The notes under the pieces are model-generated. The model was not told the origin of the DNA and made no database searches. It saw only the letters and a list, made by a program, of their open reading frames with translations. A stretch of 45,165 nucleotides of DNA from an uncultured archaeon (GTDB lineage Archaea > Asgardarchaeota > Thorarchaeia > Thorarchaeales > Thorarchaeaceae). The position numbers were made by a program, and so were the translations under genes. Shown piece by piece: positions 6,934-34,179 of this stretch (its first letter is position 1; the number at the start of each line of letters is the position of its first letter). The stretch is from contig CAZMBV010000001.1 of the NCBI GenBank assembly GCA_964564335.1, positions 1 through 45,165 of the forward strand. The letters run 5' to 3'.

Positions 6934-6963
6934 TAGATTTCTGCTCCGTCAGGGTAATGATTT

Positions 6964-7950: not shown

Positions 7951-7971
7951 TCTTATCAGTCTCCATCACAT

Positions 7972-13725: not shown

Positions 13726-14112
13726 CCTTAAACACGAATAAGATAGTTTCGGAAAATAAGTGCTAGCCGTCTTTGTAATGAAGATTCAATAACAAATCTA
13801 ACATATCATAGCATGGCGTCCAATATTATCTTATTACCCATAGTAATTATGCACTCGGATTGTTATAAGGAAACAGTTGGGGTATTATTTTTAGTACACT
13901 AGAATGCATTAGATGAAATGAATATTTGCTACTCTTGAATGAAGTATTCAAATTTCCATCTCTAATAATCTATCTCTTACAATCATTGATAGTAGTACGA
14001 CTGGATCCAAAGAATTAGCTTAGCAATGTACAGTCAAGAATTGATACTTATTTCTATCAAACTCAATTGCCGCTCGAATTCAGTAATCGATGATTTTCAT
14101 GTATTCATCAGT

Positions 14113-16341: not shown

Positions 16342-16427
16342 AACTATCGGTCTCCACTTCTAAACCATCTACATTGATTTATTGTTCAATTCGAATTTAC
16401 AATCAAAACCAATATATTTATATGTTT

Positions 16428-16498
16428 TGTATTACTGTAATACATATATTCAAATTATGTTGAATAACAACGATGGTATTTTAACTTGTGTTGAATAA
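16428..16498. promoter_or_regulatory. Candidate operator elements in a divergent intergenic region
   Basis: A perfect palindrome tgtattac-t-gtaataca lies at 16428-16444. The direct repeat tgttgaataa occurs at 16458-16467 and 16489-16498 (31-bp period). All lie between the divergently transcribed wHTH-PAS gene and the regulator/kinase operon. Confidence 0.3.
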
Positions 16499-16653
16499 TA
16501 ATATGGCATCGGAAAATGAGGCGAAATAATTCGCATACACCAATTCTTGCTAAGTTCTGCATTTTCTTGCCTCTCGAAACCTTCCGAGCTAGCTGATTCT
16601 GATCTATGAATTATATTCAGTATGAAAAGTAAAACCTCGGAGGTGTGTATCAA

Positions 16654-17409
16654 ATGTTGAACAAGGCAAAGATAATGGTTGTTGATGATAATGAACATCT
16701 TAGGAAGACAATGGAACGAGTACTCAATTTGAAAGGGTATGAAGTTGTTACGGCATCCATTGGTTCTGAAGCTTTGGAGAAAGCAAGACTCAATCAAGAT
16801 TTGAATATTATATTTTGGGCTATCGAGATATCGGTTATGGATAGTGTAGAAGTTCACAAACAGCTGAAGATAATTATTCCTGGTGTAGTTGTGATATTGA
16901 TAACTGATTATGCAGCTGAGGATTTAATTAAACAAGCCCTAGATGAAGAGGTTCATAGTTTTGTGTACAAACCTCTGGAACTAGATTATATTGCAAACCT
17001 AATTGTAGCCACTAAAAATGCAAGCACACAATCTCGCGTTTTAGTTGTTGAAGATAACGAAGAACTGCAGACCAAATTCAAGATGATTCTTGAGGAAAAA
17101 GGGCATTCCGTCGTAATAGCTGAAAATGGTGAGGATGCAATTGAAGCTGCAATAAATCAACCATTTGATATTCTCTTAATTGATGTCAAACTTCCGTCAA
17201 TCAACGTGCTTCAAACTTATTCAGCAATAAAAAAGATCCAGAAAGAAGCTGTATGCATTCTCATTTGTGGAGATTTACTTGATATCAATAGCCTAGTGAA
17301 TGGAATAATGGAGAGTTATGATTATTCGTATCTTCACAAACCATTTGATATGGTTCAGGTATTCATGGTAATTGATGATATATTAACCATTAACAAGGAG
17401 GGGTCCTAA
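16654..17409 (+). CDS. Tandem-receiver protein with degenerate (pseudo-receiver) first domain
   Basis: Paralogue of 6964-7731. The first REC has FWAIEIS where the paralogue has FMDIKMP, so the phospho-acceptor Asp is Ala (codon 16819-16821). The second REC keeps the Asp (LIDVKLP) but has ILICGD in place of MITGY. ggaggtg lies 9 nt upstream of the ATG at 16654; the track start is GTG at 16645. Confidence 0.8.
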   Translation: MLNKAKIMVVDDNEHLRKTMERVLNLKGYEVVTASIGSEALEKARLNQDLNIIFWAIEISVMDSVEVHKQLKIIIPGVVVILITDYAAEDLIKQALDEEVHSFVYKPLELDYIANLIVATKNASTQSRVLVVEDNEELQTKFKMILEEKGHSVVIAENGEDAIEAAINQPFDILLIDVKLPSINVLQTYSAIKKIQKEAVCILICGDLLDINSLVNGIMESYDYSYLHKPFDMVQVFMVIDDILTINKEGS

Positions 17410-20400: not shown

Positions 20401-20495
20401 ACATTTCTGTTGCTGACCGAGTTGAAGGTAATCCTAGTCAAGGCACCTCGTTTGATGTTTGGATACCAAAACATAAAGAAAACCAAAATCAGTAA
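17409..20495 (+). CDS. Hybrid sensor kinase: N-terminal receiver - PAS x n - GAF-like - PAS - histidine kinase
   Basis: Paralogue of 7972-10974 with long shared blocks (WFRSIFNDSPIAINVFD, ERDKAQRYLDIAG, GKNWIQNFIP, GHDIRNHLQAI, DNGNGIP, GGVGIHQAK). The start overlaps the upstream stop (TAATG at 17407-17411). Confidence 0.85.
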   Translation: MGILTNEIGVDDQSDVDESKGSILVVDDNVSLCRSLTLILNKAGYSSIGVETGAAALSALELNHFDIAIVDMRLPDMDGTELLSKLNAIDSEMENIIITGHASVETAIRAMEKKSSAYLTKPLDMERTMDTIARLMDKRKLISQKRRAEQSLAESEQWFRSIFNDSPIAINVFDADGQILAANEAMLQFSGVSGFSEISTLNLFDDPNTPEEENARIRSGEKVYTEKEFNFDLVRQFGIYPTTKSGIVYIHSGITPLRYGNSDEIHGYIVQIVDETAKVKTKQLLHESEALFRGIFEQSPIAIELFDKDGNLLRANQAALNLFGVTSVDDFKGLNLFSDPNALPWVQDELKLGNATRIEQKFDFNKTKSFNVYPSSKTGVLYLDIINTPIDINNDGKYDGFLSQIRDITENKISEDKLTKQAHQLNERVKELSCLHETARLLMSGLPLDALIEELLLVFQKALQYPENTSVQIKYHDSVYTSPDFVETEWSISSEIQISNRIIGEIIIYYTEEKPPEYKGPFLEEEVILIDALADKLGNYIEKQNAQLALVESEKKYRKLFDNLTDGVTLTDFSGNLKLCNDIFLQVFGYSEDEAIGMNFREFLHPECRDQALSEFITSVDSTKTASDGIELTGLKRDGSSFYINIQNSIVYEYEQPIGYQSVIRDVTQEKLAEIAILDERDKAQRYLDIAGAIIVVVDRDGIVELINRKGSEILGCSIDRVVGKNWIQNFIPQKSQNKARDDFSRLLEGVESAFRSKEGPILTKSGYEHIIEWRNSAIYDSEENIIGVVSSGVDITERKQAEDNLKNTADSARLYLDIMGHDIRNHLQAIVMGTDIMSHQDLSVEDVAIFELIVESVESSQKLIDQVQATRELLSTPLELVSLSEIFIEFTESVTKIFSDVDFHIESNVHNEFVLADQYLKVLCRNLVDNAVYHNPNTERSVWILLQKTKDGFLISVKDNGNGIPDSRKESLFDPGRRYGGVGIHQAKNIVEKYNGHISVADRVEGNPSQGTSFDVWIPKHKENQNQ

Positions 20496-20555
20496 TACAT
20501 AGTTCGTGCTGAAAATTTACAAACCATCAAGGGAACGTTGTCCCCAGATTTGTTT

Positions 20556-22151
20556 CTACTTAGTATCTGGCCTTGACATTCTTTTGATTCCTATTACAGA
20601 AATAATAATTCCGATAACTATCATAGGAGTACTCACTGTTAACATGAAAAGAATTAGATTACTTTCAACCATCATCACCCTAATTCCAATCATTAATGCC
20701 ATTACGACAATACCGATGACCGCAAAAATGGATACGAACGTATTCACCATAAATGCACTGCTTTTTTGATCTTCATACGCAGGATTGTTTGCTGTAACTC
20801 CAATACACAATAAGACTGCTCCACACGTTGACCAATACGCATACGCAATAACCGCTAATGATTCGAGGATATTAAATCCAAAGACAACAGCAGCTACAAT
20901 TGATGGGATTATAGCAACTGGAATTATCAGAATGAAGAATCCAATGATACGAGCTTTCGCAAATTTCCAGACTCCATTTGGAGAGGACTTGATTATCCAG
21001 AGCTGATCCTTTGATTCAAGAAATCCAATTCCTCCAAATGTAATTCCACTAACCATAGCAAGCATCATTCCTAACATCAGAATTGTAATCATCAAAATTA
21101 TTTGATGAACTCCTTCAGGAGCACCTTCAGGCATTGAACCCATAGCATAACTTAGAATGATTGGTAATAGGACAGAGATAATGACACCATAAATGAGTCG
21201 TGACATATTCTGCATTTTACGTGTGAACTCTTTGATTGAATTAACAACTAGAACACCAGGCGCTCCAGGATATAATCGTCTTATCCCTTTTAAGAACCGA
21301 TTCTCCTCTCCAACTGTTGTAATCTTTTCTGTACGCGGGCCAGATCCAAAAGAGAAGATTCTGTCTGCTGATACGTATGCTAGGACTACAATTAGTGTTG
21401 TGAAGCATAGAAGCATAATGAAATCTCCAAAAACGGTCAGCGTCAAAATGTCAACGAACAAGGTCTCTGACAAACCTAGACCATTGAAGATTATAATGCT
21501 CCATGAGATGATGTCAGCTCCCCACGTAAAGGGAAATAGAATGAAGACATCTAAGCCAAGGATTGCTGACATGGCACTTGAGAAGTAGATTAATCCATAC
21601 ATCGGAATGAGAACGACGATAGCAACAACCATTGACAGTGCTTTTGCAATATCGTTCCCACGGGATGATTCACCAAGTTTTGCTTGAATAGCCGTAGTGA
21701 TGAGATTTGAAAAGAATAAGGTACTGAGAGCAACGAAGAACAGAGTAAGATACATGATGATTTGACCGAGTAGGCTAACCTGCATGACTATTGCAAATGG
21801 TGTAAGCATTATTGGTGCAATAAATAACACAAGTAGTCCATAGCTAGGAACCTTTCCTAGGAACATTCCGAACATCATGTCCCATGTACTTACGTTATTA
21901 CTCAACATAATTTCCCATTGGCCGATACGAATCTCTTGTAAGGCGTATGAAATTGGATAGATAAGGAAAATAACCCAGAGAAGCATCATTACTGAGCGCA
22001 TTAAACTTGGAAAGCTGTACATTAGCAATAATTCTACTCCTGGCCCAAATGAATCGAGGATGGATGGCATTATGCCTGGAACAATGAATAATGCCCAGAT
22101 GATCCCAATACATAAGAGAATGATGTTAGCAGGATTACGGTATCTACGCAA
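20556..22151 (-). CDS. ABC-2-type transporter permease (polytopic)
   Basis: About 12 or more hydrophobic helices, located directly downstream of an ABC ATPase. The track start is TTG at 22151, but the reading frame stays open to 22238 and encodes a typical permease N-terminus (see findings). Confidence 0.7.
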   Translation of the reverse strand: MRRYRNPANIILLCIGIIWALFIVPGIMPSILDSFGPGVELLLMYSFPSLMRSVMMLLWVIFLIYPISYALQEIRIGQWEIMLSNNVSTWDMMFGMFLGKVPSYGLLVLFIAPIMLTPFAIVMQVSLLGQIIMYLTLFFVALSTLFFSNLITTAIQAKLGESSRGNDIAKALSMVVAIVVLIPMYGLIYFSSAMSAILGLDVFILFPFTWGADIISWSIIIFNGLGLSETLFVDILTLTVFGDFIMLLCFTTLIVVLAYVSADRIFSFGSGPRTEKITTVGEENRFLKGIRRLYPGAPGVLVVNSIKEFTRKMQNMSRLIYGVIISVLLPIILSYAMGSMPEGAPEGVHQIILMITILMLGMMLAMVSGITFGGIGFLESKDQLWIIKSSPNGVWKFAKARIIGFFILIIPVAIIPSIVAAVVFGFNILESLAVIAYAYWSTCGAVLLCIGVTANNPAYEDQKSSAFMVNTFVSIFAVIGIVVMALMIGIRVMMVESNLILFMLTVSTPMIVIGIIISVIGIKRMSRPDTK

Positions 22152-22210
22152 TTTAGATGTCTGTACAAAGAATTCAGTTTTGGCAATGGCTAACCATTTT
22201 CTGGTCAGAT

Positions 22211-22969
22211 TCAGTCCCTCCAGCTGAGAAGTTTTGATCTATCTACTTGACCTCCAACGATTTTCAGGTAAGCATCTTCCAGGTCCTTTCCTGCAACTTG
22301 ATCTATGATATCTGAGGGTGAACCCAGAGTATTTAGTAAACCCTCATTCAAGATACCTATTACCTCACAGACATCTTCCGCAAAATCGGTCATGTGTGTA
22401 CAGATGAAGAATGTGGTATCCATCTCTTCTGCCATTGCGATGATAATCTCTTTGACCAAAGCGCTTGCAGCTGGATCTAGTCTCGAAGTCGGTTCATCAA
22501 GGAAGACTAGTCGGGGTTCATGCAATACTGTTGATGCTACCAATACTTTTTGTTTCATACCACTGCTATAACTTTCCAGTAGGTCATTTTGTCGCTCCTC
22601 TAAACCCATTAGATCTAGGAGTCTATCAATTCGTCGATGGAGTAACTCTCCACTCATGTCATTAAGTGCACCTATGAATTCTAGAAATTCCACAGCAGAG
22701 AGTTTGGAATAGAGACCTGGGGTTTCTGGTAAGAGTCCAGTGACTGATTTAATTTCTTTTCTTTGAGTATGTACATCAAAACCGCAAACAGTAGCATTTC
22801 CACTGGTCTGTTTTAACAGTCCTGACAAAATACGTACTGCAGTTGTTTTTCCAGCTCCATTTGGCCCAAGAAACCCAAAGACGCTACCTCTTGGGACATT
22901 GAGATTCAAGTTCTGTAATGCTAGAACACTTCCAAAATTCTTTGAGAGACCTTCGGTCTGTATATCCAT
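22211..22969 (-). CDS. ABC transporter ATP-binding protein
   Basis: Walker A GPNGAGKTT, signature SSGMKQK, Walker B LVFLDEPTSRLD. The track start is GTG at 22981; the in-frame ATG at 22969 gives the typical MDIQTEGLSKNFG. Confidence 0.85.
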   Translation of the reverse strand: MDIQTEGLSKNFGSVLALQNLNLNVPRGSVFGFLGPNGAGKTTAVRILSGLLKQTSGNATVCGFDVHTQRKEIKSVTGLLPETPGLYSKLSAVEFLEFIGALNDMSGELLHRRIDRLLDLMGLEERQNDLLESYSSGMKQKVLVASTVLHEPRLVFLDEPTSRLDPAASALVKEIIIAMAEEMDTTFFICTHMTDFAEDVCEVIGILNEGLLNTLGSPSDIIDQVAGKDLEDAYLKIVGGQVDRSKLLSWRD

Positions 22970-23144
22970 ATTCCCTGACACTTGACCACTACCAATTCCT
23001 GTTCGATGCTTGAAGATATAAACGTTTTACAGAATTTTAATTACTCTCCATTTGCGTATTTTTATCACAACCACTCAAACCTTACATGTCTGTTCTCTTC
23101 CTTAGATATACAAAGAAAATCATATTTTGCCGGAAGTTGATTGC

Positions 23145-24395
23145 ATGGCCTCTGACGCAACTAATTCAGATAGAGTTTCAATCACTCGGAGAATCCGCTA
23201 CATATTATTTGAGCCATCAGATGCACTTATTTCTGATGTTGTCAGAGTTAAGGCACGACTGCTGTCATTATCGTTGTTTTTAATTGTAATTCTACTTCCT
23301 TCTATTCAGGTAGTACTGGGAATATTCTTCGTAAGTGCAACGACAATCCTACAAGCAACTCTTATTTTCTTTGCAATTTACATAATCAGTAGGACCAAAT
23401 ACGTTGTTATTGCAGGTGTCTTAATGGCTCTGGCGCTAGCGATAATGCCCTATCTGTTTCTATTGACCCCATTCAATCGGAGTCAAACAAGAATAGTTCT
23501 TAATCTCATTATTTGGCCTGTCATCGCAGCTTTGTATGGTTCGCAGTGGTTCTCATCTCGTCTAGAGGCTCTTTTCATTTCAGGGCAAACAATCGGGCTA
23601 GTGTTATACTCTAGCATTTACCCAGCTATTGATTTACTTATAGCTCTGGAACCAATAATAGATCAAGCCGCAATTAATCTGGTTATCCTAATATTTACAT
23701 GGTCTTTGAATTATTATATTTCTGAACTTGAAGAACACAAGCAGTTCCTTGAACAACGTCAAAGGGAGCTTGAGGTCTATACATCCGTACTGACACATGA
23801 CTTAGGAAACGATATGCAAATTGTCAAAGGTCACATTGAGCTTCTCGGTGAAATTGAGAGGTGGCCAGAGAATATTGAATCATATCTATCAACAACACTT
23901 GCTGTTAGTGAAAGAATGTCACAGGTCATCAAACTATTCTCTGTTGTTGGTAGAGGAAGTGAATACGATTTCCTTGATACTCTTCAGACTATGGCGAAGA
24001 ATGCAAAGCAATCTAGAGGTGGAGCAAATGTGAAACTAATGTACGAGCGAGATGTCCGATCCTCAAATATCCGTCCCGGTATACTGCTTCCCTTAGTTCT
24101 TGAAAATCTGTTAAGAAATACTGCTGACTACGCTGGTAATGGAGCAGTTGTAACTATTCGTCTTGGTTTAGTTGAAAAGAACCTTCTAATTACGTATCGT
24201 GATGATGGGCCTGGAATTGATGAGACTGTACGGGATAGGATTTTTCAAAAAGGTGTGACTACGAGGGGAGAAGGGAAAGGTTTAGGACTGTATCTCTCAA
24301 AGAGAATCATCGAATCATATGGTGGAACAATTGAACTACTGGAATCGCAATTAGGTTCGGGAGCTGCATTTCTTATCTCGGTTCCAGTCCTTTAG
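23145..24395 (+). CDS. Membrane-bound sensor histidine kinase
   Basis: About six N-terminal TM helices, then H-box THDLGNDMQIV and an ATPase domain (ENLLRNTADY, DDGPGID, GKGLGLYLSK). The track start is TTG at 23127; I prefer the ATG at 23145 (MASDATN). Confidence 0.8.
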   Translation: MASDATNSDRVSITRRIRYILFEPSDALISDVVRVKARLLSLSLFLIVILLPSIQVVLGIFFVSATTILQATLIFFAIYIISRTKYVVIAGVLMALALAIMPYLFLLTPFNRSQTRIVLNLIIWPVIAALYGSQWFSSRLEALFISGQTIGLVLYSSIYPAIDLLIALEPIIDQAAINLVILIFTWSLNYYISELEEHKQFLEQRQRELEVYTSVLTHDLGNDMQIVKGHIELLGEIERWPENIESYLSTTLAVSERMSQVIKLFSVVGRGSEYDFLDTLQTMAKNAKQSRGGANVKLMYERDVRSSNIRPGILLPLVLENLLRNTADYAGNGAVVTIRLGLVEKNLLITYRDDGPGIDETVRDRIFQKGVTTRGEGKGLGLYLSKRIIESYGGTIELLESQLGSGAAFLISVPVL

Positions 24396-24407: not shown

Positions 24408-25190
24408 TCATAGTGAAAATTGTTTCTGAAGTTTGCTACTCCGATAACAGGCCTTGATGCATTTTCCACATATGTCCTTCTCGATACCCTTTGACTTTAA
24501 AAACTGAATGTACCTATGGCAATTCTCTCTGTAGTCAGGTAGAATATTGCGATGCCTGATGAATCCGCAGGCATCCTCGCACGCTGTACAAATTCCGCAC
24601 ATCGATTCAATTCTCACTCCATGTTGGAATGGCATTTTAGTAATTATTGATGCGAATCTGATTGCGCAACTATACTTCTCATGGATGATAAGTTGGTTCT
24701 TACCACGCCACCCAATCCCTGAGTTTTCGGCAACGACTCTGTGAGAAACGACCAGCGGCCAGTATTCCCACACATGTTCGACTTCTCCTTTCATATCTCC
24801 AATAGTTGCCTTCAGAGGAATACCGTTGAACTGAGATGCTATTGCAAGAGCCATTCGATTCAGAACTTGATTGATTCTATCGTATTCTCTTCCGTATTCA
24901 TTCCAAAGCGGATAATCTGTTTCACCAGTGTCTTTGTTGTCTATATAATCAATTATGGGATTTCGATAAGCCACACCAATGCATATGATGGAACCGGATT
25001 CGTAGAGATCACCAAATCTTTTTTTAGTTATCTCATGGAGTTTCTTCTTCTGTACATCCATGAGTTCATCATAAACAGCTTTGTAACTTGATATACCAAT
25101 ATCTCCGCGTTCGTTTCCTTCATCAAGAAGCTCTTGGAACACTCTATGTAATTCTAGAGTGTTCTCTTTAGCTTCGGTTTGATGATTCAT
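24408..25190 (-). CDS. QueG-like / reductive-dehalogenase-superfamily 4Fe-4S protein
   Basis: AENSGIGWRGKNQLIIHEKYSCAIRFASIIT resembles the AGLGWIGKN..LI..GS block of epoxyqueuosine reductase. It is followed by CGICTACEDAC and CGKCIKAC. The gene lies 22 nt downstream of the hdr operon, with ggag upstream of its ATG. Confidence 0.5.
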   Translation of the reverse strand: MNHQTEAKENTLELHRVFQELLDEGNERGDIGISSYKAVYDELMDVQKKKLHEITKKRFGDLYESGSIICIGVAYRNPIIDYIDNKDTGETDYPLWNEYGREYDRINQVLNRMALAIASQFNGIPLKATIGDMKGEVEHVWEYWPLVVSHRVVAENSGIGWRGKNQLIIHEKYSCAIRFASIITKMPFQHGVRIESMCGICTACEDACGFIRHRNILPDYRENCHRYIQFLKSKGIEKDICGKCIKACYRSSKLQKQFSL

Positions 25191-25212: not shown

Positions 25213-28200
25213 CTAAGAAGATGCTACTTGCTTTTTATGAGCTGCAATAAGTCCTAATATTTCTGCATTGATCTGCTCTGTTGTAAAGTGCCTCCTCTTT
25301 GCTGCTCCAGTAGGGCAAACAACTTGGCATTTCCCGCAACCCGTACAGAGTAGTGAATTAACTACTGAAAGTTGTGGTCCATCTTCACGGTCCTCAAGTG
25401 TGATGGCATCAAACGGACACACTTGCTCGCAAAGGCCGCATCCGATACACAACTCCTCATCAATAATAGCTTTATCCATTTGGACTCGAACCTGACCTTT
25501 GAGTACATGTGATGATGCTGCACTTGCAGCTGCTTTTCCATCAGAAACACAAGATGGAATATCCTTCGGGCTCTGACATGCACCTGCTATGAAGACTCCT
25601 CTAGATTTAGTGTTAACCGGTTCAAGTTTCGGATGAAGCTCTTTCATAAAGCCACCCTCACTCCTGTCGACTCCAAGCATGTGTGCTAGTTCAGCAGCTC
25701 CTTCCGCAGGATCAACAGCCATTGTTAGGACAACAAGATCAAAGTTCAGGCGTAAGAGTTGTCCGATTCCTTGATCAAAGACTGTGAAACTGATAGTTCC
25801 ATCTTCTTCTTCAGTGAAATCACTCGGGAATCCGCGTACGAATTTAGCACCATGTTCTCTCACACGACCGTAGAACTGCTCATACTCTTTTCCTCCAGCT
25901 CTAAGTTCATGGAATATGACCCACTGATCGATTGAGTCATTGTACTCTCGATAAGTCATTTCGACATGACGGAGTGTATACATACAACCGAAATTACAGC
26001 ACCAAGGTCTGCAGTTTTGGTCACGAGACCCTGCACAGTTGATGAACGCAATCTTCTTCGGAGTTTCTTTATATTCTGGAGGAATCAGAACCTTTCCTGC
26101 GGTTGGGCCAACAAGGCTCAATAGACGCCCATATTGCCCTCCAGTGATAACTCGCTTGAATTTTCCGCCACCATATTCAGGAAGCTCTGTCATGCTAATC
26201 TCCTGGAAACCAGTGGCTGCGACAATTGCACCAACTGTAAGCTCGATTTCTTCTTCGACCATACAATGGTCTATAGCATCTTTCTCACAAGCTTCAACGC
26301 ATAATTTGCATTCACAGCAGATAGCACAATTAAGGCATCGCTCTGCTTCCTTAACTGCAATCTTTTCAGAGAATCCAAGTTCCACCTCTTCAAAATTCGC
26401 AGCTCTGGTTTTTGCAGGTAATGTCTTCATTTTTGCACGGGTTCCACCAGGAAGTTCATCCTGTTCAAGTTCAGGTCGTGGAGCTCTAGGTTGCGCCTTT
26501 GGTCTGGTTTCTATCAGATCAAGACCACGAAGGAATAGATCGATAGACTTTGCTGCTTCGTGTCCTGCACCAACAGCTTCTACTGCAAGAGCTGGACCTG
26601 TGACTAGGTCTCCTCCTGCAAATACGTCTTCCATACTTGTCTGCATTGTCACTGAATCTACGATTGGAGTACCCCATCTGGATAACTCGAGTTCTGAGTG
26701 AGGCCCATCTGGATGAACAGACTGTCCAATAGCAATTATGACATTGTCAACATCTAAATCGAATTCAGAACCAGTAATCGGTACTGGACGCCGTCTTCCA
26801 GATTCATCTGGGTCTCCTAGTTTCATCTTGATGCATCTGATTCCAGAGATTGCACCGCCAGAAACAAGCACCTCCACAGGATTTGCGAGCAGTTTTAGCT
26901 TCACGCCTTCTTTCACTGCATCATCAACTTCACTCCTGATCGCAGGCATCTCCTCTCTGGACCTTCGATAAACGAGGGTAACATCAGATCCAAGACGAAG
27001 TGCGACTCGAGCTGAGTCTATTGCAGAATTTCCTCCACCTATCACAGCGACCTTGCTTCCAAGCTGTACTTTTTCTCCCCCATTCACACGATAGAGGAAA
27101 TCAAGGGCATGATAGACACCTTTCGCATCTTCACCGTTCACATGCAGCTTTGAACTTACATAGGCTCCTGTTCCAAGAAAGATTGCATCAAATCCTTGTT
27201 TTCTGAGTGAATCTAGAGAATCAACTCTCTTTCCTGTGATTATCTCAACACCATGCTGCTTTACGTAGTCAATCTCCGACTTCAGGATATCGCGTGGTAG
27301 ACGATGCTCTGGAATACCCCACCTCAGTAATCCTCCTGCCTCTTCACGTTCTTCAAATACCGTGACGGGATAACCTTTCTGGGCAAGGTAAAATGCGCAC
27401 GCTATTCCCGCGGGTCCTGCACCAACTACAGCTATCTTCTCCTTCTTGTCTATTACATTATCAACAGGATCTATCTCTCCTGATTCGAGCTCACGATCAT
27501 GTAGCCACCTGTGAATGTTCCTAATACTCACGCTCTCGTCGTAAGTGCCTCTTTCACATTCGTCTTCACAAAGTGCTGGGCAAACGCGACCTAATGCACC
27601 AGGAAATGGAATTGCTTCTCTGACCAATTTGAGTGCTTCATCGTACTTGCCAACTTTAGTAAGCGTAACGAATCCCTGACAGCTAACATGAGCTGGACAT
27701 GAAATCTTACATGCTGCATGACCAAGTTTCTCTATTGATACGGCACCAGGTACTGCCTGTGGAAATGGTTTGTAGATAGCTGTCCTTTTTGACATTCCAA
27801 GATCGTGATGTTTTGGTGTAAGAACTGGACATACTTTCAGACAATCTCCACAATCATTGCATTTCTCAAGATCAATATACCGCGGGTGTTTGGCAAGAGT
27901 GACTTTGAAATTGCCATAGTCTCTCTCAACCTCTTTAACCTCAGTGGTTGTATAGATATCGATGTTCTTATTCCTATCAATTGCACTTAACTTGGGAGAC
28001 AAAATACACATTGAACAGTCTAGTGTTGGGAATGTTTTTTCCAATTTTGCCATATATCCACCGATTGATACATTACGTTCAATCAAATCCACATGGATAC
28101 CTTTGTCAGCTAGATCAAGAGCAGTCTGGATGCCGGAAATTCCCGCTCCTACGACCATGACACTCTTTTCAACTGGATAGTCTTTGAATCCAATATCTTC

Positions 28201-28617
28201 AAGGAGTTTAGCTCGCTCGACTGCTCCTGCGATGAGTTCGTAAGCTAATTTCTGAGCCTTCTCGGGCTTATCTCCATGTACCCATGTATCGTGTTCTCGG
28301 ATATTAGCTTGCGCTAACCTGAATCTATTGAGACCCTTCTCTTCGATTATGTCACGGAATAGCTCTTCATGTAATTTTGGAGTACAGGAAGCAATCACCA
28401 CACCCGTAAGATCATTTTCTTCTATGCTTTGTGCAATTCTTGATTGCCCTTCCTTTGAGCAAGTGAACATGTTCCATGTTGCAAGAACAACACCAGGATA
28501 ATTATCAAAATCATGGGCAAGCTTATCGACATCTACGACGCCACCAATGTTTGAACCACATGAACAAACAAAGACACCAATGCGATCCTCTTGCTTTTTA
28601 CTACGCTTCTTTGACAT
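25213..28617 (-). CDS. Giant HdrA homologue with nested GltD/NfnB-like NAD(P)H module (HdrL-like)
   Basis: HdrA landmarks: VCSCGSN, GAGISG, FPTLDCSMC, CNDCGDCLKVCP, AIYKPFPQAVP, NCAGSRDQNCRPWCC, CIGCGLCEQVCP and CTGCGKCQVVCP. The internal GltD/NfnB-like block carries GRVCPALCEDECERG, GAGPAGIACA, AGGLLRWGIPEHRLP, VIGGGNSAIDSAR and FAGGD. Confidence 0.8.
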   Translation of the reverse strand: MSKKRSKKQEDRIGVFVCSCGSNIGGVVDVDKLAHDFDNYPGVVLATWNMFTCSKEGQSRIAQSIEENDLTGVVIASCTPKLHEELFRDIIEEKGLNRFRLAQANIREHDTWVHGDKPEKAQKLAYELIAGAVERAKLLEDIGFKDYPVEKSVMVVGAGISGIQTALDLADKGIHVDLIERNVSIGGYMAKLEKTFPTLDCSMCILSPKLSAIDRNKNIDIYTTTEVKEVERDYGNFKVTLAKHPRYIDLEKCNDCGDCLKVCPVLTPKHHDLGMSKRTAIYKPFPQAVPGAVSIEKLGHAACKISCPAHVSCQGFVTLTKVGKYDEALKLVREAIPFPGALGRVCPALCEDECERGTYDESVSIRNIHRWLHDRELESGEIDPVDNVIDKKEKIAVVGAGPAGIACAFYLAQKGYPVTVFEEREEAGGLLRWGIPEHRLPRDILKSEIDYVKQHGVEIITGKRVDSLDSLRKQGFDAIFLGTGAYVSSKLHVNGEDAKGVYHALDFLYRVNGGEKVQLGSKVAVIGGGNSAIDSARVALRLGSDVTLVYRRSREEMPAIRSEVDDAVKEGVKLKLLANPVEVLVSGGAISGIRCIKMKLGDPDESGRRRPVPITGSEFDLDVDNVIIAIGQSVHPDGPHSELELSRWGTPIVDSVTMQTSMEDVFAGGDLVTGPALAVEAVGAGHEAAKSIDLFLRGLDLIETRPKAQPRAPRPELEQDELPGGTRAKMKTLPAKTRAANFEEVELGFSEKIAVKEAERCLNCAICCECKLCVEACEKDAIDHCMVEEEIELTVGAIVAATGFQEISMTELPEYGGGKFKRVITGGQYGRLLSLVGPTAGKVLIPPEYKETPKKIAFINCAGSRDQNCRPWCCNFGCMYTLRHVEMTYREYNDSIDQWVIFHELRAGGKEYEQFYGRVREHGAKFVRGFPSDFTEEEDGTISFTVFDQGIGQLLRLNFDLVVLTMAVDPAEGAAELAHMLGVDRSEGGFMKELHPKLEPVNTKSRGVFIAGACQSPKDIPSCVSDGKAAASAASSHVLKGQVRVQMDKAIIDEELCIGCGLCEQVCPFDAITLEDREDGPQLSVVNSLLCTGCGKCQVVCPTGAAKRRHFTTEQINAEILGLIAAHKKQVASS

Positions 28618-29544
28618 CTATTCTTGCACCTCCGTTTTCACATTAATTGGACTAGGTCCAAGTTTGCGAATTTGCTCAGTGAAATCCTCTACAATTTTTG
28701 CAAATTTGACGCCCATTGCAGCGGATGCAAAGTCGATATTGAGTCGACCACCTAAACCAATCTCTTCGAAAATTTCCGACCAGAATTTCACAAAATCTTC
28801 TTGCATAAAATTACCAGCCTTGGGGCTATCACCACCATAATGACATTCTGACAATAAGCAACCTGTGACCAGTACCCCATCAGCTCCATTTTCCAGAGCT
28901 GTCATAATATGGATTGGTTCAAGTGCTCCACTACATGGAAGTCGAATTGTTCGGATTGATACAGGGTAATGTAAATGCATCAGACCTGCAAGATCTGCGG
29001 CTGCATGTGAACACTCCCAGCAAACAAAACAGATGATGAATGGTTCCCACTCTTTCGATGTGGGTTTTGGTGGAAACGCTTCGATAGGTCCGATTATCTC
29101 AGGAAGCTTGTAGGTCTTCTGTAATGTGAGACAATCCTCTGGACATGCCTCAATGCATTTTTCGCAAGCAATGCACTGCTCTGCACTCCACAATATTGAC
29201 CCATAACCTGGAAGTCCTTGAGGCACTGAAATAGCTTGAACATCACCGGAATCGTAATCGCCTTTGAGATTCTGCAACAGTGTTACTAGTTCTTCTCTGT
29301 TCTTTGATCTGAAACCCTCTTGGGGTATTGTTACTCGCAAGTAATCATGCATATTCAGAGTTTCATCTATATCTAATGCACCAGGTTCACATGCAACTAT
29401 ACATTTCTTACACGCACTGCAAGTCTGCGCTTTGTATTCAATAGTTCCAAACCCTACGACTTTTTCTGGAACCTCCACCTCATTTGTAGGAGTCTTCACT
29501 GCAATCGATCGAAGTGCTTCTAGAAGTTTGATTCGCTTATCCAC
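28618..29544 (-). CDS. 2x[4Fe-4S] ferredoxin fused to MvhD (FlpD) domain
   Basis: CSACKKCIVACEP and CIACEKCIEACPEDC, followed by an MvhD-like block FVCWECSHAAADLAG ... IRLPCSGALEP ... GADGVLVTGCLLSECHY. The track start is TTG at 29553; the GTG at 29544 sits 9 nt after gaggagg and overlaps the upstream stop. Confidence 0.75.
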   Translation of the reverse strand: MDKRIKLLEALRSIAVKTPTNEVEVPEKVVGFGTIEYKAQTCSACKKCIVACEPGALDIDETLNMHDYLRVTIPQEGFRSKNREELVTLLQNLKGDYDSGDVQAISVPQGLPGYGSILWSAEQCIACEKCIEACPEDCLTLQKTYKLPEIIGPIEAFPPKPTSKEWEPFIICFVCWECSHAAADLAGLMHLHYPVSIRTIRLPCSGALEPIHIMTALENGADGVLVTGCLLSECHYGGDSPKAGNFMQEDFVKFWSEIFEEIGLGGRLNIDFASAAMGVKFAKIVEDFTEQIRKLGPSPINVKTEVQE

Positions 29545-31492
29545 GGTGGGCAACCTCCTCTTGCATCTTATTTGGTAACGCTGCTATCATGTATGTTGCC
29601 TTTACACGACTTGGATCTTGACCTATACTTGTCAGCATGTCCTGTGTAAATTGGACAACCAGCTCCGATAGGTGATCTCCAGTCTGATGATGGCAACCAC
29701 CAGGTGGGCAATGAGCTATAGTGATATTCTCAGCTCCCACTACCAAGCCTTTCAAAATTTCAATTGGTGATATCATTCCAGCACAGGGAAATTGAATAAC
29801 GTAATTACCTGTTGGATATCCTTTACCCGTAAATCCCGCTTGATCGATTGATGCATTTGCACACTCGCTACAAGCGTAGACTAGTGAGAAAGGTTTGTCA
29901 CCTTCTAGTTTCTTATGATTCATTGCAATTGCTTCGAGTCTTGCCATCCAGGAATCCTTGTTATGCGATTGGAATTCAATAGCACGCGTAGGACATGCTG
30001 ATACACAAATTCCACAGAATTCACAATTCATTGGTATGTGTTTGATGAGGTCTCCATCACGTCTTAATGCATCATTCGGGCACGTCTTAACACATGCCTC
30101 ACAAACATCGCACAGTTCCTCATCGATTACGGGAATCCACCCTTTACGCTCACCTTCTGCGACTGCATTCTTCAACACTTCAAGTGAAGCGTTTGAAGCC
30201 GATGCCAATGCATCATTTAGATTCATTGGGGTCTTTGCATTGCCTGCAATAAAGATGCCTCTCTTTGAGGTTTGGACTGGTTTCATCTTCGAATATCGAG
30301 TCTTAATGAATCCATTTTGGTCCAACTCCAAGTCAAGTGTGCTGGCAAGGTTTCTTGTGCCAGACCAAGGTTTACGTTCTGGCTGCAGGACAATGTAATC
30401 TACTGTAAATTCTCGTATCTGTGACTCTAGTGTATTTTCGAGTCTACAAACAAGTTGGTCTTTCTTTTTGTCAACTTTCTCAAGAGTTCCTCTTACAAAT
30501 ATGACTCCTGATTCCCTTGCTTTTCGATAGAGATTCTCGTCCTTTGTGTAAATATTGAAGTGTGCAACAATGATAGTATTTCCTTTCTCTGCAGCCTGAG
30601 TTACTTCTCGAAGGAGATAACTTCCCTCGGCGTCACTTTCGTGATATGATGGATCTTGCGCTACAAGAATAGTCTTACCAGATTGATTTGATGTCAGAGT
30701 TGCCAACTCTGAAATAAATACAGTGTTGTCATACTTGCCATAGTGGGCGGTCTTTGCAAGAGATGGCGCAGATTGCTCTGTATTTGTAGCTATGACTATC
30801 GCACCTACAAGCATATCTTTCTCTTTTCCATCTTCAAGTTTCACATCAACAGAATAAAGTCCAGCCCTCCCACTAAGGCTTGTAATTGTTCCATTGAGTT
30901 TCTCAGCATCCTTAGAGGTTGAGAGTAATCCTTTGATAGTTTCTTTCAGGATTTCACTCTCAGCCATGAATTGGTTCAAACCTACATAGGAGTCTTTATT
31001 GAACTCTGGAGGTTCGAGCAAAATCACAGGAATACCAAGCTGAACCAAGTCACTAGCAACTTTCAAGCCAGCAATTCCTCCTCCAACAACTAAGACTTTC
31101 TTTTCAATCTCAAGGTCTACTGCTGTCTTTGGTTCTAGGTGATCGACATGAATTGCACCATCATGGAGAAGTACTATCGCCTTGTTTGTGGCACTATTCT
31201 TATCATCTTTATGAACCCACGCAACATGTTCTCGAATTGGTACAAACAATACCTGTTCACTCTTGAGTCGCCTCTCCATGGGTACTCCAATTATTTGAGA
31301 GGTACAGGCACCAATAACAACTGCATCGTCGTTCGATACTTCAGAGTCTAGATAATCTAACCCTTCTTTCAGACATAAAGAATCATGGACCTGAACCGAT
31401 TCGAAAGTATTACCAAGTTCCTTTTCAATTCGTGCAAAGTCTAGCCACCTGGTGAGCGTCTTATTGCATGTACATAGGAAGAGTTTCTTCAT
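29537..31492 (-). CDS. Degenerate HdrA-like flavoprotein fused to ferredoxin and MvhD domains
   Basis: HdrA-type N-terminal Cys domain (LCTCNKT ... GACTS) and a GGGIAGL fold. These are followed by CDVCEACVKTCP / CEFCGICVSACP and an MvhD-like block YACSECANASIDQAG ... FPCAGMISP ... AHCPPGGCHH. The start forms an ATGA overlap with the upstream hdrA. Confidence 0.75.
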   Translation of the reverse strand: MKKLFLCTCNKTLTRWLDFARIEKELGNTFESVQVHDSLCLKEGLDYLDSEVSNDDAVVIGACTSQIIGVPMERRLKSEQVLFVPIREHVAWVHKDDKNSATNKAIVLLHDGAIHVDHLEPKTAVDLEIEKKVLVVGGGIAGLKVASDLVQLGIPVILLEPPEFNKDSYVGLNQFMAESEILKETIKGLLSTSKDAEKLNGTITSLSGRAGLYSVDVKLEDGKEKDMLVGAIVIATNTEQSAPSLAKTAHYGKYDNTVFISELATLTSNQSGKTILVAQDPSYHESDAEGSYLLREVTQAAEKGNTIIVAHFNIYTKDENLYRKARESGVIFVRGTLEKVDKKKDQLVCRLENTLESQIREFTVDYIVLQPERKPWSGTRNLASTLDLELDQNGFIKTRYSKMKPVQTSKRGIFIAGNAKTPMNLNDALASASNASLEVLKNAVAEGERKGWIPVIDEELCDVCEACVKTCPNDALRRDGDLIKHIPMNCEFCGICVSACPTRAIEFQSHNKDSWMARLEAIAMNHKKLEGDKPFSLVYACSECANASIDQAGFTGKGYPTGNYVIQFPCAGMISPIEILKGLVVGAENITIAHCPPGGCHHQTGDHLSELVVQFTQDMLTSIGQDPSRVKATYMIAALPNKMQEEVAHRG

Positions 31493-32757
31493 TTAGACAC
31501 CTCCATCAAATCAGAGTATACTCTGAGTGCAACAGCATTAGCTTCTGCAATACTGGTTGGAATATCAGCAGGTCCCGTCGCTGTTCCACATGCGTAGACC
31601 TTTCCTTCCTTTACAACTCTTCGAGCGAATCCGTATTCACCTAAAAATTCAGAAACGGGATCACTATTTGGTCCCCATGGAGCCAGAGGTGATGCAAGAA
31701 CAACGAGGTCAGATTCTATCTGCATGAGTTTTTGAGATTGAGTATCTTCGACAATTGTGACTGGTTTGCCGTTGCGAACTACAACTTTATCCGGCTTGCC
31801 TCGCAAGAATTTGACTCCTTTCTCAATTGAGTTAGCCAGATAATGCACACTAGCGTTTGGGACTCGTATATCCATATAACAGATCGTTACGTCGATGCCA
31901 AGATCTCGTAACATCTCTGCGTGCTTCAAGCTATATGTACAACATGCCTGAGAGCAGTACTCGAAAGCAGTCTTATCCCTACTACCGACGCAAAGAATCA
32001 TAGTCACCTTAGATACGTTATCTCCTGTAGAGGTGGTGACTACACCTTTTGTATCTCCAGCTGGATCAATCAATCTTGCTAATTCAGCATGGGATATTAT
32101 ATCGTCTGATGTCCTGTATTCGTAACCAGGAAATTCGAGTGGAATCTTCTCTTCAACGCCTGTCGCTATAATAACTGCATCAGCGTTGATTGTTTTTGAA
32201 CTCTTCTTCTCTTCGAAGTCTATGGCATTGACCTTGCAGACATCTGCACACTTTCCACATTTCGTACAATGCTCCATATCTATTAGAGGAGCATGAGGTA
32301 CTCCTTGAGGAATTGGCCGATAGATAGCTTTCCGTGTTCCTCCACGAACGGCATATTCATCTGGTACTTCTACATCACAGACATCAATGCATTCAAGACA
32401 CACTACACAGCGGTCAAGTTTGACATGGCGTGGCTCCAATTTGATTGAAACCTTGAATCCACCTTCTGCTTCGGTGATTGACTTGACCTCAGCTTGCGTA
32501 TACAACTTGAGATTCTTCTTTTCAGTCACTAAACCACGATACTCACATTTTCTGTGATGTCCATCGTACATCTCATTACTAGCATCAAGACATAATGCAC
32601 AATCGCCGGTTGGAAAGACACGACCTAGATAGGTTGAGAGTCCACCGATGATAGCTTCTTTTTCAATCAAATGAACTGTAACTCCAAGATCGGTTAATTG
32701 TTGAGATATTTGGATTCCAGCCAGTCCCGCACCAATAACAACTGCGTTCTTTGCCAT
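31489..32757 (-). CDS. hdrA: Heterodisulfide reductase subunit A-like core (lacks the N-terminal Cys domain)
   Basis: GAGLAGIQ FAD fold, FPTGDCALC, inserted ferredoxin CVVCLECIDVC / CTKCGKCADVC, and LCVGSRDKTAFEYCSQACC. Confidence 0.8.
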   Translation of the reverse strand: MAKNAVVIGAGLAGIQISQQLTDLGVTVHLIEKEAIIGGLSTYLGRVFPTGDCALCLDASNEMYDGHHRKCEYRGLVTEKKNLKLYTQAEVKSITEAEGGFKVSIKLEPRHVKLDRCVVCLECIDVCDVEVPDEYAVRGGTRKAIYRPIPQGVPHAPLIDMEHCTKCGKCADVCKVNAIDFEEKKSSKTINADAVIIATGVEEKIPLEFPGYEYRTSDDIISHAELARLIDPAGDTKGVVTTSTGDNVSKVTMILCVGSRDKTAFEYCSQACCTYSLKHAEMLRDLGIDVTICYMDIRVPNASVHYLANSIEKGVKFLRGKPDKVVVRNGKPVTIVEDTQSQKLMQIESDLVVLASPLAPWGPNSDPVSEFLGEYGFARRVVKEGKVYACGTATGPADIPTSIAEANAVALRVYSDLMEVSK

Positions 32758-32759
32758 TC

Positions 32760-33665
32760 TTATGCACCTCCAACTCCAGCCTTTACCAGTAGCTCCGTGA
32801 TTTTGACTCGATGGTATCTCCTCTGATTATCAGTGACAATCTCAGTCAAACCCATTGAAAGAGCTAACAATTCTCCTAGGGATAATACTGGAATATTGAA
32901 CTCAGTTTCAGCAATTGCTTCAACTTTCCCTTGCTGTGTTTCCATTTGGGTATAACATGTTGGACAGAGTACTACGATAGCATCTGCGCCTGAGGCTTTG
33001 ATATGCTTCAGATGCTTTGATGTAATTGTCAATGCCTTTTGCTCATCTCCAGGCATAATAGGAGCACCACAACACGCCATCTTATCTTCGAATTCTGCAA
33101 CCTCTGCCCCGGTCGCTTTGATGATTTCATCCATCCATTGTGGGTTTTCTGCGCTATCCATATTTGTTGCTTCCAATGGTCTTACAAGATGGCATCCATA
33201 GTGCGGTGCAATCTTTAATTGCTTCAGAGGATTTGTTACCTGCTTCGCAATAGCTTCTATTCCTATATCGTTGTGAAGTACATGAAGCAGGTTCTTGACA
33301 GCATGCTCTCCAGAAACTTCAAGTCCTGACTTTTTGAGCCGTTTATTGATCCTCTCTTTTAGTTCTGGATCTTCATGGACCATATGATTCGCTACTGCGA
33401 GGGTATGGAAGCATCCGCTACACATTGCTACTGTTTCATTCCCAGTAGCTTCACTCACTGCAACATTTCTTGCTGCTATTGTGACCCAGGCTTCAAAGTC
33501 AACTCCAGTGAAAGTAGTAGGTTCTGGGCAGCATGAATGATCCGAACTTGTTTCTAATTCAACTTCTAGTTTCTTGAGAACCTCTCGCATTGACAATTCG
33601 AAATGTGGTAGTCGGTAAGGTATCATGCAACCTGGAAAGTAAGTGTAAGTTCGAGCTTTACTCAT
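32760..33665 (-). CDS. hdrB: Heterodisulfide reductase subunit B-like (two CCG-type Cys-rich domains)
   Basis: First domain: YFPGC...SCCPEP...MCSGC. Second domain: HYGCH...MACCGAP...LCPTC. The track start is 33692; the ATG at 33665 follows ggaggt by 6 nt and overlaps the hdrC stop (ATGAGTAA). Confidence 0.8.
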   Translation of the reverse strand: MSKARTYTYFPGCMIPYRLPHFELSMREVLKKLEVELETSSDHSCCPEPTTFTGVDFEAWVTIAARNVAVSEATGNETVAMCSGCFHTLAVANHMVHEDPELKERINKRLKKSGLEVSGEHAVKNLLHVLHNDIGIEAIAKQVTNPLKQLKIAPHYGCHLVRPLEATNMDSAENPQWMDEIIKATGAEVAEFEDKMACCGAPIMPGDEQKALTITSKHLKHIKASGADAIVVLCPTCYTQMETQQGKVEAIAETEFNIPVLSLGELLALSMGLTEIVTDNQRRYHRVKITELLVKAGVGGA

Positions 33666-34179
33666 CTTTGGAACCTCCATAGACTGATTCAACTTTTTCT
33701 AAATTTCCAACAATTCCAATATCTGCAAGCATCTCGACAATCTTCTCCATAGGTGGCGTTCCAAGGTCTGGGAGTCCCATCTTCTCACGAGTCTTGAGCA
33801 TTGGTGAGCTTACCTCTAGGCTTCTGCCAATCGATAGGATATTTCTTGCACGATCAAGAGCCGCAGGAGGTACATTTCCTTTCATTAGCCCTCGAACTTT
33901 AGCTAGGATGAGGATATGTGGTATTTTCACATGTTCAGGGCACCGTACCTCACATTGTTCGCATGTAAGGCAATTCCAAACCAGTTGCTCCTCTGCTATC
34001 AATTCATCACTGAGTATTATTTTCTGCAAAAATAATCTAGGATTGAATGCGGGTTCGATATCTGCGACAGGACAGGCACTAGTGCATCGTCCACATTGAT
34101 AACATCTCAGCAGAGTCTTACCCTCTGGTTGATCTAGAAGCCAATTTCTGAAGTTCAGATTTGTATCGTTTGTAACCAT
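33658..34179 (-). CDS. hdrC: Heterodisulfide reductase subunit C-like (2x[4Fe-4S])
   Basis: CYQCGRCTSACPV and CLTCEQCEVRCPEHV. The gene is 173 aa and is the first gene of the operon. Confidence 0.8.
   Translation of the reverse strand: MVTNDTNLNFRNWLLDQPEGKTLLRCYQCGRCTSACPVADIEPAFNPRLFLQKIILSDELIAEEQLVWNCLTCEQCEVRCPEHVKIPHILILAKVRGLMKGNVPPAALDRARNILSIGRSLEVSSPMLKTREKMGLPDLGTPPMEKIVEMLADIGIVGNLEKVESVYGGSKDE

Follow-up and report, generated by a model that had tools for sequence, protein, structure and literature searches.

An HdrA-type flavoprotein of a Thorarchaeota-like archaeon carries a GltD/NfnB-type module in permuted order within its inserted ferredoxin domain

Introduction

Four families of flavin-based electron-bifurcating enzymes are known; the HdrA-type complexes form one of them and are abundant in Asgard archaea. 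In this study, we analyzed a gene for an HdrA-type flavoprotein on a 45,165-nucleotide stretch of DNA from an uncultured archaeon placed in the Thorarchaeaceae (assembly GCA_964564335.1, contig CAZMBV010000001.1, positions 1 to 45,165; this whole stretch is called the window). The gene encodes a complete HdrA chain whose inserted ferredoxin domain is interrupted by a 467-residue module of the GltD/NfnB type, and alignments place the parts of this module in circularly permuted order. Coordinates are window positions, and features lie on the minus strand unless stated otherwise.

Low-potential electrons reach ferredoxin in canonical HdrA by way of the inserted ferredoxin domain (PMC9012536). Large HdrA proteins with an additional nucleotide-binding part have been described. 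Under the definition of Strittmatter et al. (2009), HdrL is a fusion of HdrA and glutamate synthase that has an NADH site and is encoded beside mvhD (PMC2702500), and Sedano-Nunez et al. (2018) detected an HdrABC/HdrL cluster in proteomes of Syntrophobacter fumaroxidans (PMC5947623); a confurcating or bifurcating role was proposed for HdrL (PMC2702500, PMC5947623). NfnB-like insertions in this HdrA domain were published in 2022 for a group of anaerobic methanotrophic archaea (ANME), ANME-1, for which Chadwick et al. proposed confurcation with thiols, with NADP+/NADPH at the end of the low-potential branch (PMC9012536). The arrangement noted in a sequence-only reading of the window is not an unusual one; it is the conserved architecture of a large family known as HdrL and HdrA-NfnB (PMC2702500, PMC9012536). 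It occurs widely and has been published before, and three solved complexes show the permuted topology. What is new here is the explicit reading of the permutation and of its seam, the His ligand in the Asgard clade, and a correlation between topology and ligand.

Results

The fusion open reading frame (ORF) of 1134 amino acids runs from an ATG to a stop codon at 25213-25215 (25213..28617) and has no in-frame stop across its length; residue r begins at nucleotide 28617-3(r-1), so that nucleotides 26269-27711 are residues 303-783. It has the four-domain HdrA architecture with its cluster ligands. Residues 1-245 (27883..28617) hold the N-terminal domain (C18, C20, C53, C78) and the first half of the thioredoxin-reductase-like domain that binds flavin adenine dinucleotide (FAD), with G157xG159xxG162 and with C201/C204 where the partner-ligand Cys197 is; they lie within the alignment to 8rvu_a, the HdrA of the Elp-Hdr complex. 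The same alignment defines the first half of the host inserted-ferredoxin domain (residues 246-297, 27727..27882), which contains C253xxC256xxC259xxxC263P and the AIYKPFPQAVP loop. The second motif of this domain, C767(C768)xC770xxC773xxxC777, is found at residues 765-785 (26263..26325) and aligns to 8rvu 298-337. The remaining HdrA (residues 786-1110, 25288..26262), assigned by profile and by structure-sequence alignment, comprises the second half of the FAD domain, which carries the C861xGSRD...C873..C878 cluster, and a C-terminal ferredoxin domain of the 2x[4Fe-4S] type (C1057-C1067, C1091-C1101).

In the alignment, 8rvu_a 4-298 corresponds to residues 3-297 and 8rvu 298-337 to residues 764-803, and the alignment to 8rvu/5odc HdrA as a whole spans residues 3-297 and 764-1128. 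The HdrA chain is complete, and no host residue is lost; the sole interruption, residues 298-763/764, lies directly ahead of the second CxxCxxCxxxC motif of the inserted ferredoxin domain. The NCBIfam profiles divide in the same way, with HdrA2 positions 1-303 matching residues 12-310 and HdrA positions 289-653 matching residues 755-1126. Both scores fall below the equivalog cut-offs (NF040770 HdrA2, 691.5 versus 1100 bits; NF041778 HdrA, 507.4 versus 1400 bits), and by sequence the fusion protein is related to methanogen HdrA but is no equivalog of it. The sequence-only reading had the HdrA landmarks in canonical order, which this alignment bears out, and every string it quoted is present at the place it gave: AIYKPFPQAVP at residues 280-290, GKYDEALK...CERG at 323-357, GAGPAG at 399-404, VIGGGNSAIDSAR at 525-537, FAGGD at 666-670, NFEEVELGF at 741-749, KEAERCLNC at 756-764 and CCECKLCVEACEKDAI at 767-782.

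The insert shows the hallmark set of GltD/NfnB proteins, namely Rossmann domains for FAD and NAD(P)H and seven cysteines for two [4Fe-4S] clusters. It starts with a helical Fe-S part (residues 298-389, 27451..27726) containing C303, C307, C346, C350, C354 and the non-Cys ligand position His369, as placed by Fer4_20 and the NfnB alignment. The FAD- and NADP(H)-binding Rossmann domains follow (residues 390-698, 26524..27450; Pyr_redox_2 E 2.3e-44), with GAGPAG (399-404), GGGNSA (527-532), YRR (550-552) and FAGGD (666-670). A Pro-rich linker (residues 699-733, 26419..26523), whose sequence and length vary with indels among homologues, then connects the old C-terminus of the module to its old N-terminus, and leads to the relocated 'N-terminal' GltD segment R738..NFEEVELGF..KEAERC761LNC764 (residues 734-764, 26326..26418), which matches NfnB 6-43, positions 1-43 of the gltA profile and positions 1-37 of Fer4_20.

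The collinear GltD order would be R..NF.EV..EA.RCxxC followed by CxxxCP and the core; in the fusion protein this segment sits after the core. Alignment to T. maritima NfnB (4ylf_B) paired residues 303-698 with NfnB 47-461 and residues 728-765 with NfnB 6-43, and alignment to P. furiosus NfnL paired the same two stretches with NfnL 49-470 and 18-47. The profiles were split likewise: positions 36-449 of TIGR01316 gltA matched residues 301-696 and positions 1-43 matched residues 734-778 (E 4.2e-7), while positions 29-111 of Pfam Fer4_20 matched residues 300-379 and positions 1-37 matched residues 738-778. When the 107-amino-acid fragment of residues 697-803 was searched alone, the N-terminus of NfnB was recovered (E 3.6e-4). 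By these alignments, the insert is circularly permuted with respect to canonical NfnB, with a resemblance well beyond chance. The 4ylf_B alignment and the two profiles also agree with what had been proposed from the letters alone, a GltD/NfnB-type module between the two cluster motifs of the HdrA inserted ferredoxin domain, with the segment that normally opens GltD proteins behind the dinucleotide-binding domains and running into the second HdrA motif; no collinear order, the outcome that would have contradicted this proposal, appeared in the profile or NfnB alignments.

The insert begins with C..CPA and finishes with NF.EV..EA.RCxxC, between the host Fe-S motifs. The breakpoint of the permutation falls inside the first cluster motif, separating CxxC from xxxxCxxxCP, and only two residues lie between C764 of the relocated segment and C767 of the host second motif. 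Curated cut-offs of the canonical families were missed (TIGR01316, 343 versus 471.75 bits; TIGR01317, 203 versus 447.7 bits; TIGR01318, 306 versus 482.95 bits). The NCBIfam profiles PRK12771 (positions 48-545) and PRK12814 (positions 102-582) are collinear with the insert, the PRK12771 match being just under its cut-off (497.1 versus 516 bits).

The ligands of NfnB are given in PMC7596348, citing Demmer 2015, as C39, C42, C47 and C100 for the distal cluster and C51, C90, C96 and E117 for the proximal one. By homology, the distal [4Fe-4S] cluster of the module would probably be bound by C761, C764, C303 and C354, and the FAD-proximal cluster by C307, C346, C350 and His369. StnC K170, a Lys ligand of the FAD-proximal cluster, aligns with His369, which independently supports this ligand map. 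His369 replaces both the Glu of canonical NfnB (E117) and the Lys of the permuted type (StnC K170, Tsi NfnA K165). An assignment of the RCxxC pair to the non-Cys-ligated cluster was rejected; its NfnB equivalents C39/C42 are in the all-Cys distal cluster (PMC7596348). C767, C770, C773 and C777 are assigned to the two clusters of the host and C761/C764 to the distal cluster of the module, again by homology, and the motifs of module and host are probably juxtaposed and not literally shared. The sequence-only reading had called the Fe-S motifs permuted or shared; the first half of this statement holds, and the second is probably wrong, with C761/C764 belonging to the module and C767-C777 to the host. 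In such an arrangement, the chain would enter the module at C303 and leave it at C761/C764, the permutation uniting the module ends at the distal cluster and thereby bringing this cluster next to the host cluster of C767/C770/C773. A module whose ends meet at the distal cluster could be inserted into a loop of an Fe-S host and, with C764 two residues from C767, a large module would fit into a small ferredoxin domain with the Fe-S wire kept.

We found the identical 1134-amino-acid protein on nine independent contigs of at least four samples, including a Joint Genome Institute (JGI) metagenome and three Logan runs, with unchanged neighbours. Conservation was assessed in the 120 best database homologues (43-92% identity), from which a subset of 95 full-length sequences was aligned. 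The junctions are identical in all 120, and so are C253/256/259/263, C303, C307, C346, C350, C354, C761, C764 and C767/770/773; C777 is kept in 119, the remaining one having a gap, and C768 is variable. The spacing across the seam, C-x2-C-x2-C-x2-C-x2-C-x3-C, was free of gaps in the 21 representative homologues inspected. Invariant among the 95 full-length homologues are R738, E744, V745, A754, E757, R760, C761 and C764 around the seam and YRR in the Rossmann part, and the HdrA landmarks C18/C20/C53/C78, GxGxxG, C201/C204, C861xGSRD..C873..C878 and the C-terminal dicluster domain are fixed. Matches covering nearly all of the seam peptide (residues 725-800, 76 amino acids) were found in 139 clusters at 50% identity (E<=1e-10), a number that rises to 770 at E<=1e-3. 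Among the matches listed, full-length relatives come from archaeal genomes named Thor-, Sif-, Hermod- and Promethearchaeota, Halobacteriota and Thermoplasmatota, and from bacteria of the Syntrophobacteraceae, Dehalococcoidales, Thermotogae, Thermoleophilia and Bacteroidales. The junctions are shared with uncultured Syntrophobacteraceae, Syntrophaceae and delta-proteobacterial loci (L007, L061, L053) and with Halobacteriota-named homologues. The closest cluster at 90% identity (87-88% identical) includes proteins named Candidatus Thorarchaeota.

An AlphaFold2 (AF2) model of the full protein was built from the 95 homologues and compared with the PDB using Foldseek. The model has a mean predicted local distance difference test score (pLDDT) of 88.8 and a predicted TM-score (pTM) of 0.77, with pLDDT values of 90-94 for residues 731-790 and 78-82 for the linker. 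Its TM-scores normalized to the target (TMt) were 0.89-0.90 against solved HdrA, with 0.89 over ∼1118 alignment columns for 5odc_A/7bkb_A, in which the insert appears as one gap, and 0.80 against NfnB 4ylf_B (419 columns, root mean square deviation (rmsd) 2.1 Å). NfnA(Bfu) 9n5u_A was matched over 534 columns with 42% identity and StnC over 503 columns. The model thus matches the two parents named in the sequence-only reading, and in it the HdrA and NfnB folds are both preserved.

We compared the insert with its solved relatives. NfnA(Bfu) and StnC gave E-values of 1e-126 to 1e-102 and NfnB ∼1e-85. The best PDB matches were Csac NfnA(Bfu) (9bov_A 103-576, E 1.9e-126) and S. ovata StnC (8oh5_C 103-575), each as a single alignment, and Tsi NfnA (9n5u_A) matched in two collinear stretches, 106-503 and 549-603. 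All three are collinear with the insert through NF.EV..EA.RCxxC, and the published GltD-like domain of StnC (amino acids 102-565) finishes at C565 of RC562LEC565 (residue count from the HMMER alignment). The StnC and NfnA subunits of the Bfu-type NfnABC transhydrogenases (8OH5_C, 9BOV_A, 9N5U_A) share with the fusion protein the permuted order, the 'pC..CPA' start, the 'EA.RC..C' end and a non-Glu proximal ligand, and their FAD is the NADPH entry site and is described as non-bifurcating. They differ in having a NuoG/Fdh-like host with the insertion after its [2Fe-2S] domain, in the Lys ligand where the fusion has His, and in having as the bifurcating centre a flavin mononucleotide (FMN) in a NuoF-like subunit. 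NfnB/NfnL (4YLF_B, 5JCA_L) as well as GltD and the N-terminal part of DPD share the fold (TMt 0.78-0.80, rmsd 2.1-2.4 Å), the seven Cys, YRR and the two Rossmann domains, but in NfnB/NfnL the N-segment comes first, the proximal ligand is Glu, the FAD is bifurcating, and the protein is free-standing with an NfnA partner.

On the host side, HdrA of MvhAGD-HdrABC, Fdh-Hdr-Fmd and Elp-Hdr (5ODC_A, 7BKB_A, 8RVU) has the same four domains, all cluster ligands and adjacent hdrB and hdrC genes; it lacks the 467-amino-acid insert that splits the inserted ferredoxin domain, and the source of the fusion protein is probably not a methanogen. The fusion protein corresponds to HdrL and HdrA-NfnB in being an HdrA whose inserted ferredoxin domain holds a GltD/NfnB-like, NAD(P)H-binding insertion of ∼470-500 amino acids, and in adjoining an mvhD-type gene. 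As compared by description, HdrL (Desulfobacterium autotrophicum; S. fumaroxidans cluster) is likewise a large fusion of the HdrA/glutamate-synthase type; it has an NAD(P)H site and is encoded beside mvhD and near hdrABC. HdrL1 and HdrL3 of D. autotrophicum are reported selenoproteins (PMC2702500), whereas the fusion ORF reads through. The HdrL-like relatives (∼1460-1660 amino acids; homologues P0015, P0016, P0026, P0057, P0070, P0089 and P0099, and loci L007, L008, L011, L012, L053 and L061), among them bacterial ones of ∼1460-1565 amino acids, lack the HdrA N-terminal domain and have a second HdrA unit after query residue 937, whereas the fusion protein is a single complete HdrA. In sequence, these relatives look like a fused version of the separate genes of the window, with a core::module unit joined to a second HdrA. 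A ∼490-amino-acid second insertion in relatives of ∼1480 amino acids was considered as a second GltD module and rejected, as BLAST identified it as the second HdrA unit. ANME-1 HdrA9/10/11 (HdrA-NfnB), also compared by description, are encoded in Hdr gene clusters with NADPH as the proposed carrier; the fusion protein is from a Thorarchaeota-like Asgard lineage, and nothing is said in the ANME-1 paper about a permuted order, a seam cluster or a His/Lys ligand (Chadwick et al. 2022, PMC9012536).

We next asked how the order of the module relates to the ligand of its proximal cluster, using a census of 79 GltD-type modules in 80 related loci (L005-L084) from species-representative genomes. The N-segment lies upstream of the core (canonical) in 34 modules, 120-155 nt downstream of it (permuted) in 26, and at both ends in none. 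Five modules are partial. A strict regular expression left 26 modules unclassified and a relaxed pattern left 14, owing partly to variant motifs, such as FTEEQIKAETSRCLGC in L029, and partly to contig ends. The equivalent of position 369 is Glu in 33 of the 34 canonical modules; in the permuted ones it is Lys (24 of 26) or His (2 of 26), and never Glu. Topology and ligand appear to co-vary across the 60 classifiable modules, a preliminary correlation in a sample skewed to relatives of the query. Among the 120 HdrA fusions, position 369 is Lys in 82, His in 38 and Glu in none, and the His group includes all Asgard-named proteins. No paper stating the correlation was found in the literature searched. 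A search pairing 'circular permutation' with NfnB/GltD found no linking paper, the review likeliest to cover the architecture (Appel et al. 2021, BBA 1862:148379) being outside its scope.

Two free-standing bacterial proteins of the census loci carry the nested cassette outside HdrA, one of 902 amino acids from Ruminococcaceae (L029, 7149-9857, plus strand) and one of 958 from Collinsella (L050, 6963-9839, plus strand). In both, a Cys-rich N-terminal region of ∼300 amino acids is followed by ferredoxin motif 1, a permuted GltD module, RCxxC and ferredoxin motif 2, indicating that the nested unit exists independently of HdrA.

The fusion gene is the sixth of seven in a tightly packed minus-strand operon. 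The operon starts with genes for an HdrC-like 2x[4Fe-4S] subunit (33658..34179; Fer4_8/Fer4_17) and an HdrB-like subunit with two CCG domains (32760..33692; PF02754 in two stretches, E 2.5e-33), so that HdrB and HdrC are encoded on the same strand and in the same operon as HdrA. Two HdrA paralogues follow, identified by profile and sequence comparison. The first, a 'core' of 422 amino acids (31489..32757), is equivalent to HdrA residues 144-562 and has the FAD domain, an uninterrupted inserted ferredoxin domain and an FPTxDCxxC (Cys197-type) motif, without the terminal domains. The second, of 651 amino acids (29537..31492), has the N-domain, the FAD-domain core, the C-terminal ferredoxin and a fused MvhD domain, without the inserted ferredoxin and the Cys197-type motif. 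The two proteins have complementary domain sets and resemble the heterodimeric tandem HdrA of ANME in Chadwick et al. (PMC9012536). Directly upstream of the fusion gene is the gene for a ferredoxin plus MvhD(FlpD)-domain protein of 311 amino acids (28618..29553; FlpD E 3.8e-36), which is the same neighbour on four independent contigs. The last gene, 22 nt downstream of the fusion gene, encodes a QueG-like Cys-rich protein of 260 amino acids (24408..25190) with a weak, partial TIGR00276 match (E 7e-14) and no Pfam hit. Its position is kept on the three contigs that reach that far and at the cut end of a fourth, and the protein may belong to the complex as an additional Fe-S subunit. The upstream HdrC-HdrB synteny is kept in L005 and L006, and the order in L005, an archaeal metagenome-assembled genome, is HdrC-HdrB-fusion-MvhD-HdrA core.

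The operon genes abut or overlap (28615-28620, 29537-29553, 31489-31492, 33658-33692): the stop codon of the 311-amino-acid gene directly precedes the fusion ATG, and the overlaps are of 17, 4 and 35 nt, suggesting translational coupling. On other contigs, the starts set by gene callers give shorter products, of 308 amino acids for the 311-amino-acid gene and of 301 for HdrB.

Elsewhere in the window, a gene at 39362-39949 (plus strand) encodes a small GTPase of the Ras/Roc/Arf family (195 amino acids, Ras E 7e-40). This GTPase and the Thorarchaeota names of the closest homologues of the fusion protein suggest an Asgard source, and an ANME-1 origin was rejected on the same two grounds. Beside the Hdr operon, PAS/GAF/histidine-kinase and response-regulator genes are unusually dense on both strands (5458-24395; genes at 5458-6933, 7972-11010, 11098-13725, 14113-16341, 17409-20495 and 23127-24395). 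The window also contains a homologue of an MtrH-family methyltransferase subunit (1907-2863, minus strand, E 2.8e-74), in what is probably a non-methanogen, and a P-type ATPase with HMA and tandem YHS domains (40060-42888, plus strand), a likely copper exporter.

Discussion

The fusion protein is best described as a complete HdrA-type flavoprotein whose inserted ferredoxin domain is interrupted before its second motif by a permuted NADP(H)/FAD/2x[4Fe-4S] module of 467 residues, and we consider it likely that this module is a non-bifurcating NADP(H) port wired to the ferredoxin branch. YRR is the NADP(H) determinant in NfnB, where it binds the 2'-phosphate (PMC7596348), and its invariance makes NADP(H) the expected nucleotide. 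Because the inserted ferredoxin domain is the ferredoxin branch of HdrA, the module would couple NADP(H) to that branch. Hydride would be exchanged between NADPH and the FAD of the module, and single electrons would pass from the proximal to the distal cluster of the module, to the two clusters of the HdrA inserted ferredoxin domain and on to the bifurcating FAD of HdrA, which would bifurcate or confurcate with HdrBC (thiol/disulfide couple) and the MvhD-linked subunits. The module would thus be a two-electron/one-electron converter for NADPH, as in StnC and NfnA(Bfu). We favor a non-bifurcating port because the nearest solved relatives of the module are StnC and NfnA(Bfu), its ligand is of the Lys/His type, and it lacks an NfnA-like operon partner: no NfnA/NfnS-like ([2Fe-2S]+FAD) protein was found among the operon genes scanned, a scan that did not take in every small ORF of the window.

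Several points weigh against a non-bifurcating port on the ferredoxin branch. R439, a conserved Arg that is important in NfnB, is present, and bifurcation at the insert FAD appears compatible with the sequence; a second bifurcation site at this FAD was raised by Chadwick et al. for ANME-1 HdrA-NfnB (PMC9012536). For bifurcation in the forward direction, NADP(H) at ∼-320 mV is an odd energetic fit on a branch that is normally of low potential. The operon also encodes three HdrA paralogues, and its actual wiring may not be that of the methanogen model. Finally, the ligand map is drawn from alignment, and the C761xxC764xxC767 run could conceivably hold a single cluster, in the register of a ferredoxin.

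The alternative that fares best keeps the module as an NADPH entry site and reverses the wiring. NADPH would be the mid-potential donor to the bifurcating FAD of HdrA via the inserted ferredoxin domain, and ferredoxin would be reduced elsewhere, through the C-terminal ferredoxin domain, through MvhD or through the remaining HdrA paralogues. The complex would then be a bifurcating NADPH:ferredoxin/disulfide reductase, with NADH-dependent Flx-Hdr or MetFV-Hdr as its analogues. This type of module serves in StnC and NfnA(Bfu) as the NADPH entry for a bifurcating flavin, Hdr complexes driven by NAD(P)H are known to exist (PMC5861303), and the operon could draw its other branches from the two MvhD-domain proteins and from the two truncated HdrA paralogues, which complement each other. 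We regard such a donor role as a serious contender that falls somewhat short of an even chance, since nothing in the present analysis indicates reversed wiring. Two bifurcating flavins in series, with the insert FAD as a second, NfnB-type bifurcating site, have been suggested for ANME-1 HdrA-NfnB (PMC9012536). The ∼40% identity and common fold with bifurcating NfnB/NfnL and the invariance of both R439 (in the G-I-P-E-x-R-L-P motif) and YRR would suit this arrangement, but NfnB requires a second exit via the [2Fe-2S]/FAD of NfnA, and no NfnA-like gene was found among the operon genes scanned. The proximal ligand is moreover His or Lys and never Glu, matching the non-bifurcating StnC and NfnA(Bfu), to which the module is nearer than to NfnB, making a second bifurcating site unlikely. 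That the nested, permuted look is an artefact, whether of chimeric assembly, of a frameshift joining two genes or of a chance likeness of NFEEV...RCLNC, is refuted by the nine contigs with identical protein and neighbours, the equal junctions in 120 of 120 homologues, the E-values of the relocated segment (4e-7 to 4e-4, HMM) and the confident AF2 model over both junctions; the gene is real, and the chimeric assembly that the sequence-only reading had allowed for is excluded by the contigs and the homologues.

The favored reading, a non-bifurcating NADP(H) port, adds incrementally to what is known because the overall architecture is already in the literature. Within these bounds, the permutation would explain how a 470-residue flavoprotein can sit in a 70-residue ferredoxin domain with the Fe-S wire unbroken, and the Glu versus Lys/His correlation may serve as a sequence marker separating bifurcating from simple NADPH-entry GltD modules. 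An NADP(H) port hard-wired to the ferredoxin branch would be a testable link of the NADPH pool, the thiol/disulfide couple and low-potential carriers in Asgard archaea.

Extending this, the GltD/NfnB superfamily might comprise two mutually exclusive topologies with different chemistry: a canonical, Glu-ligated one that includes bifurcating NfnB, and a permuted, 'insertable', Lys/His-ligated one that can be spliced into HdrA ferredoxin domains and into NuoG-like and ferredoxin-like hosts, with the His-ligated Asgard HdrA forming an NADPH-coupled Hdr bifurcation/confurcation system. We offer this division tentatively, as a generalization that could well fail. If it is true, the closest archaeal relatives of eukaryotes would possess an uncharacterised NADPH-coupled Hdr system.

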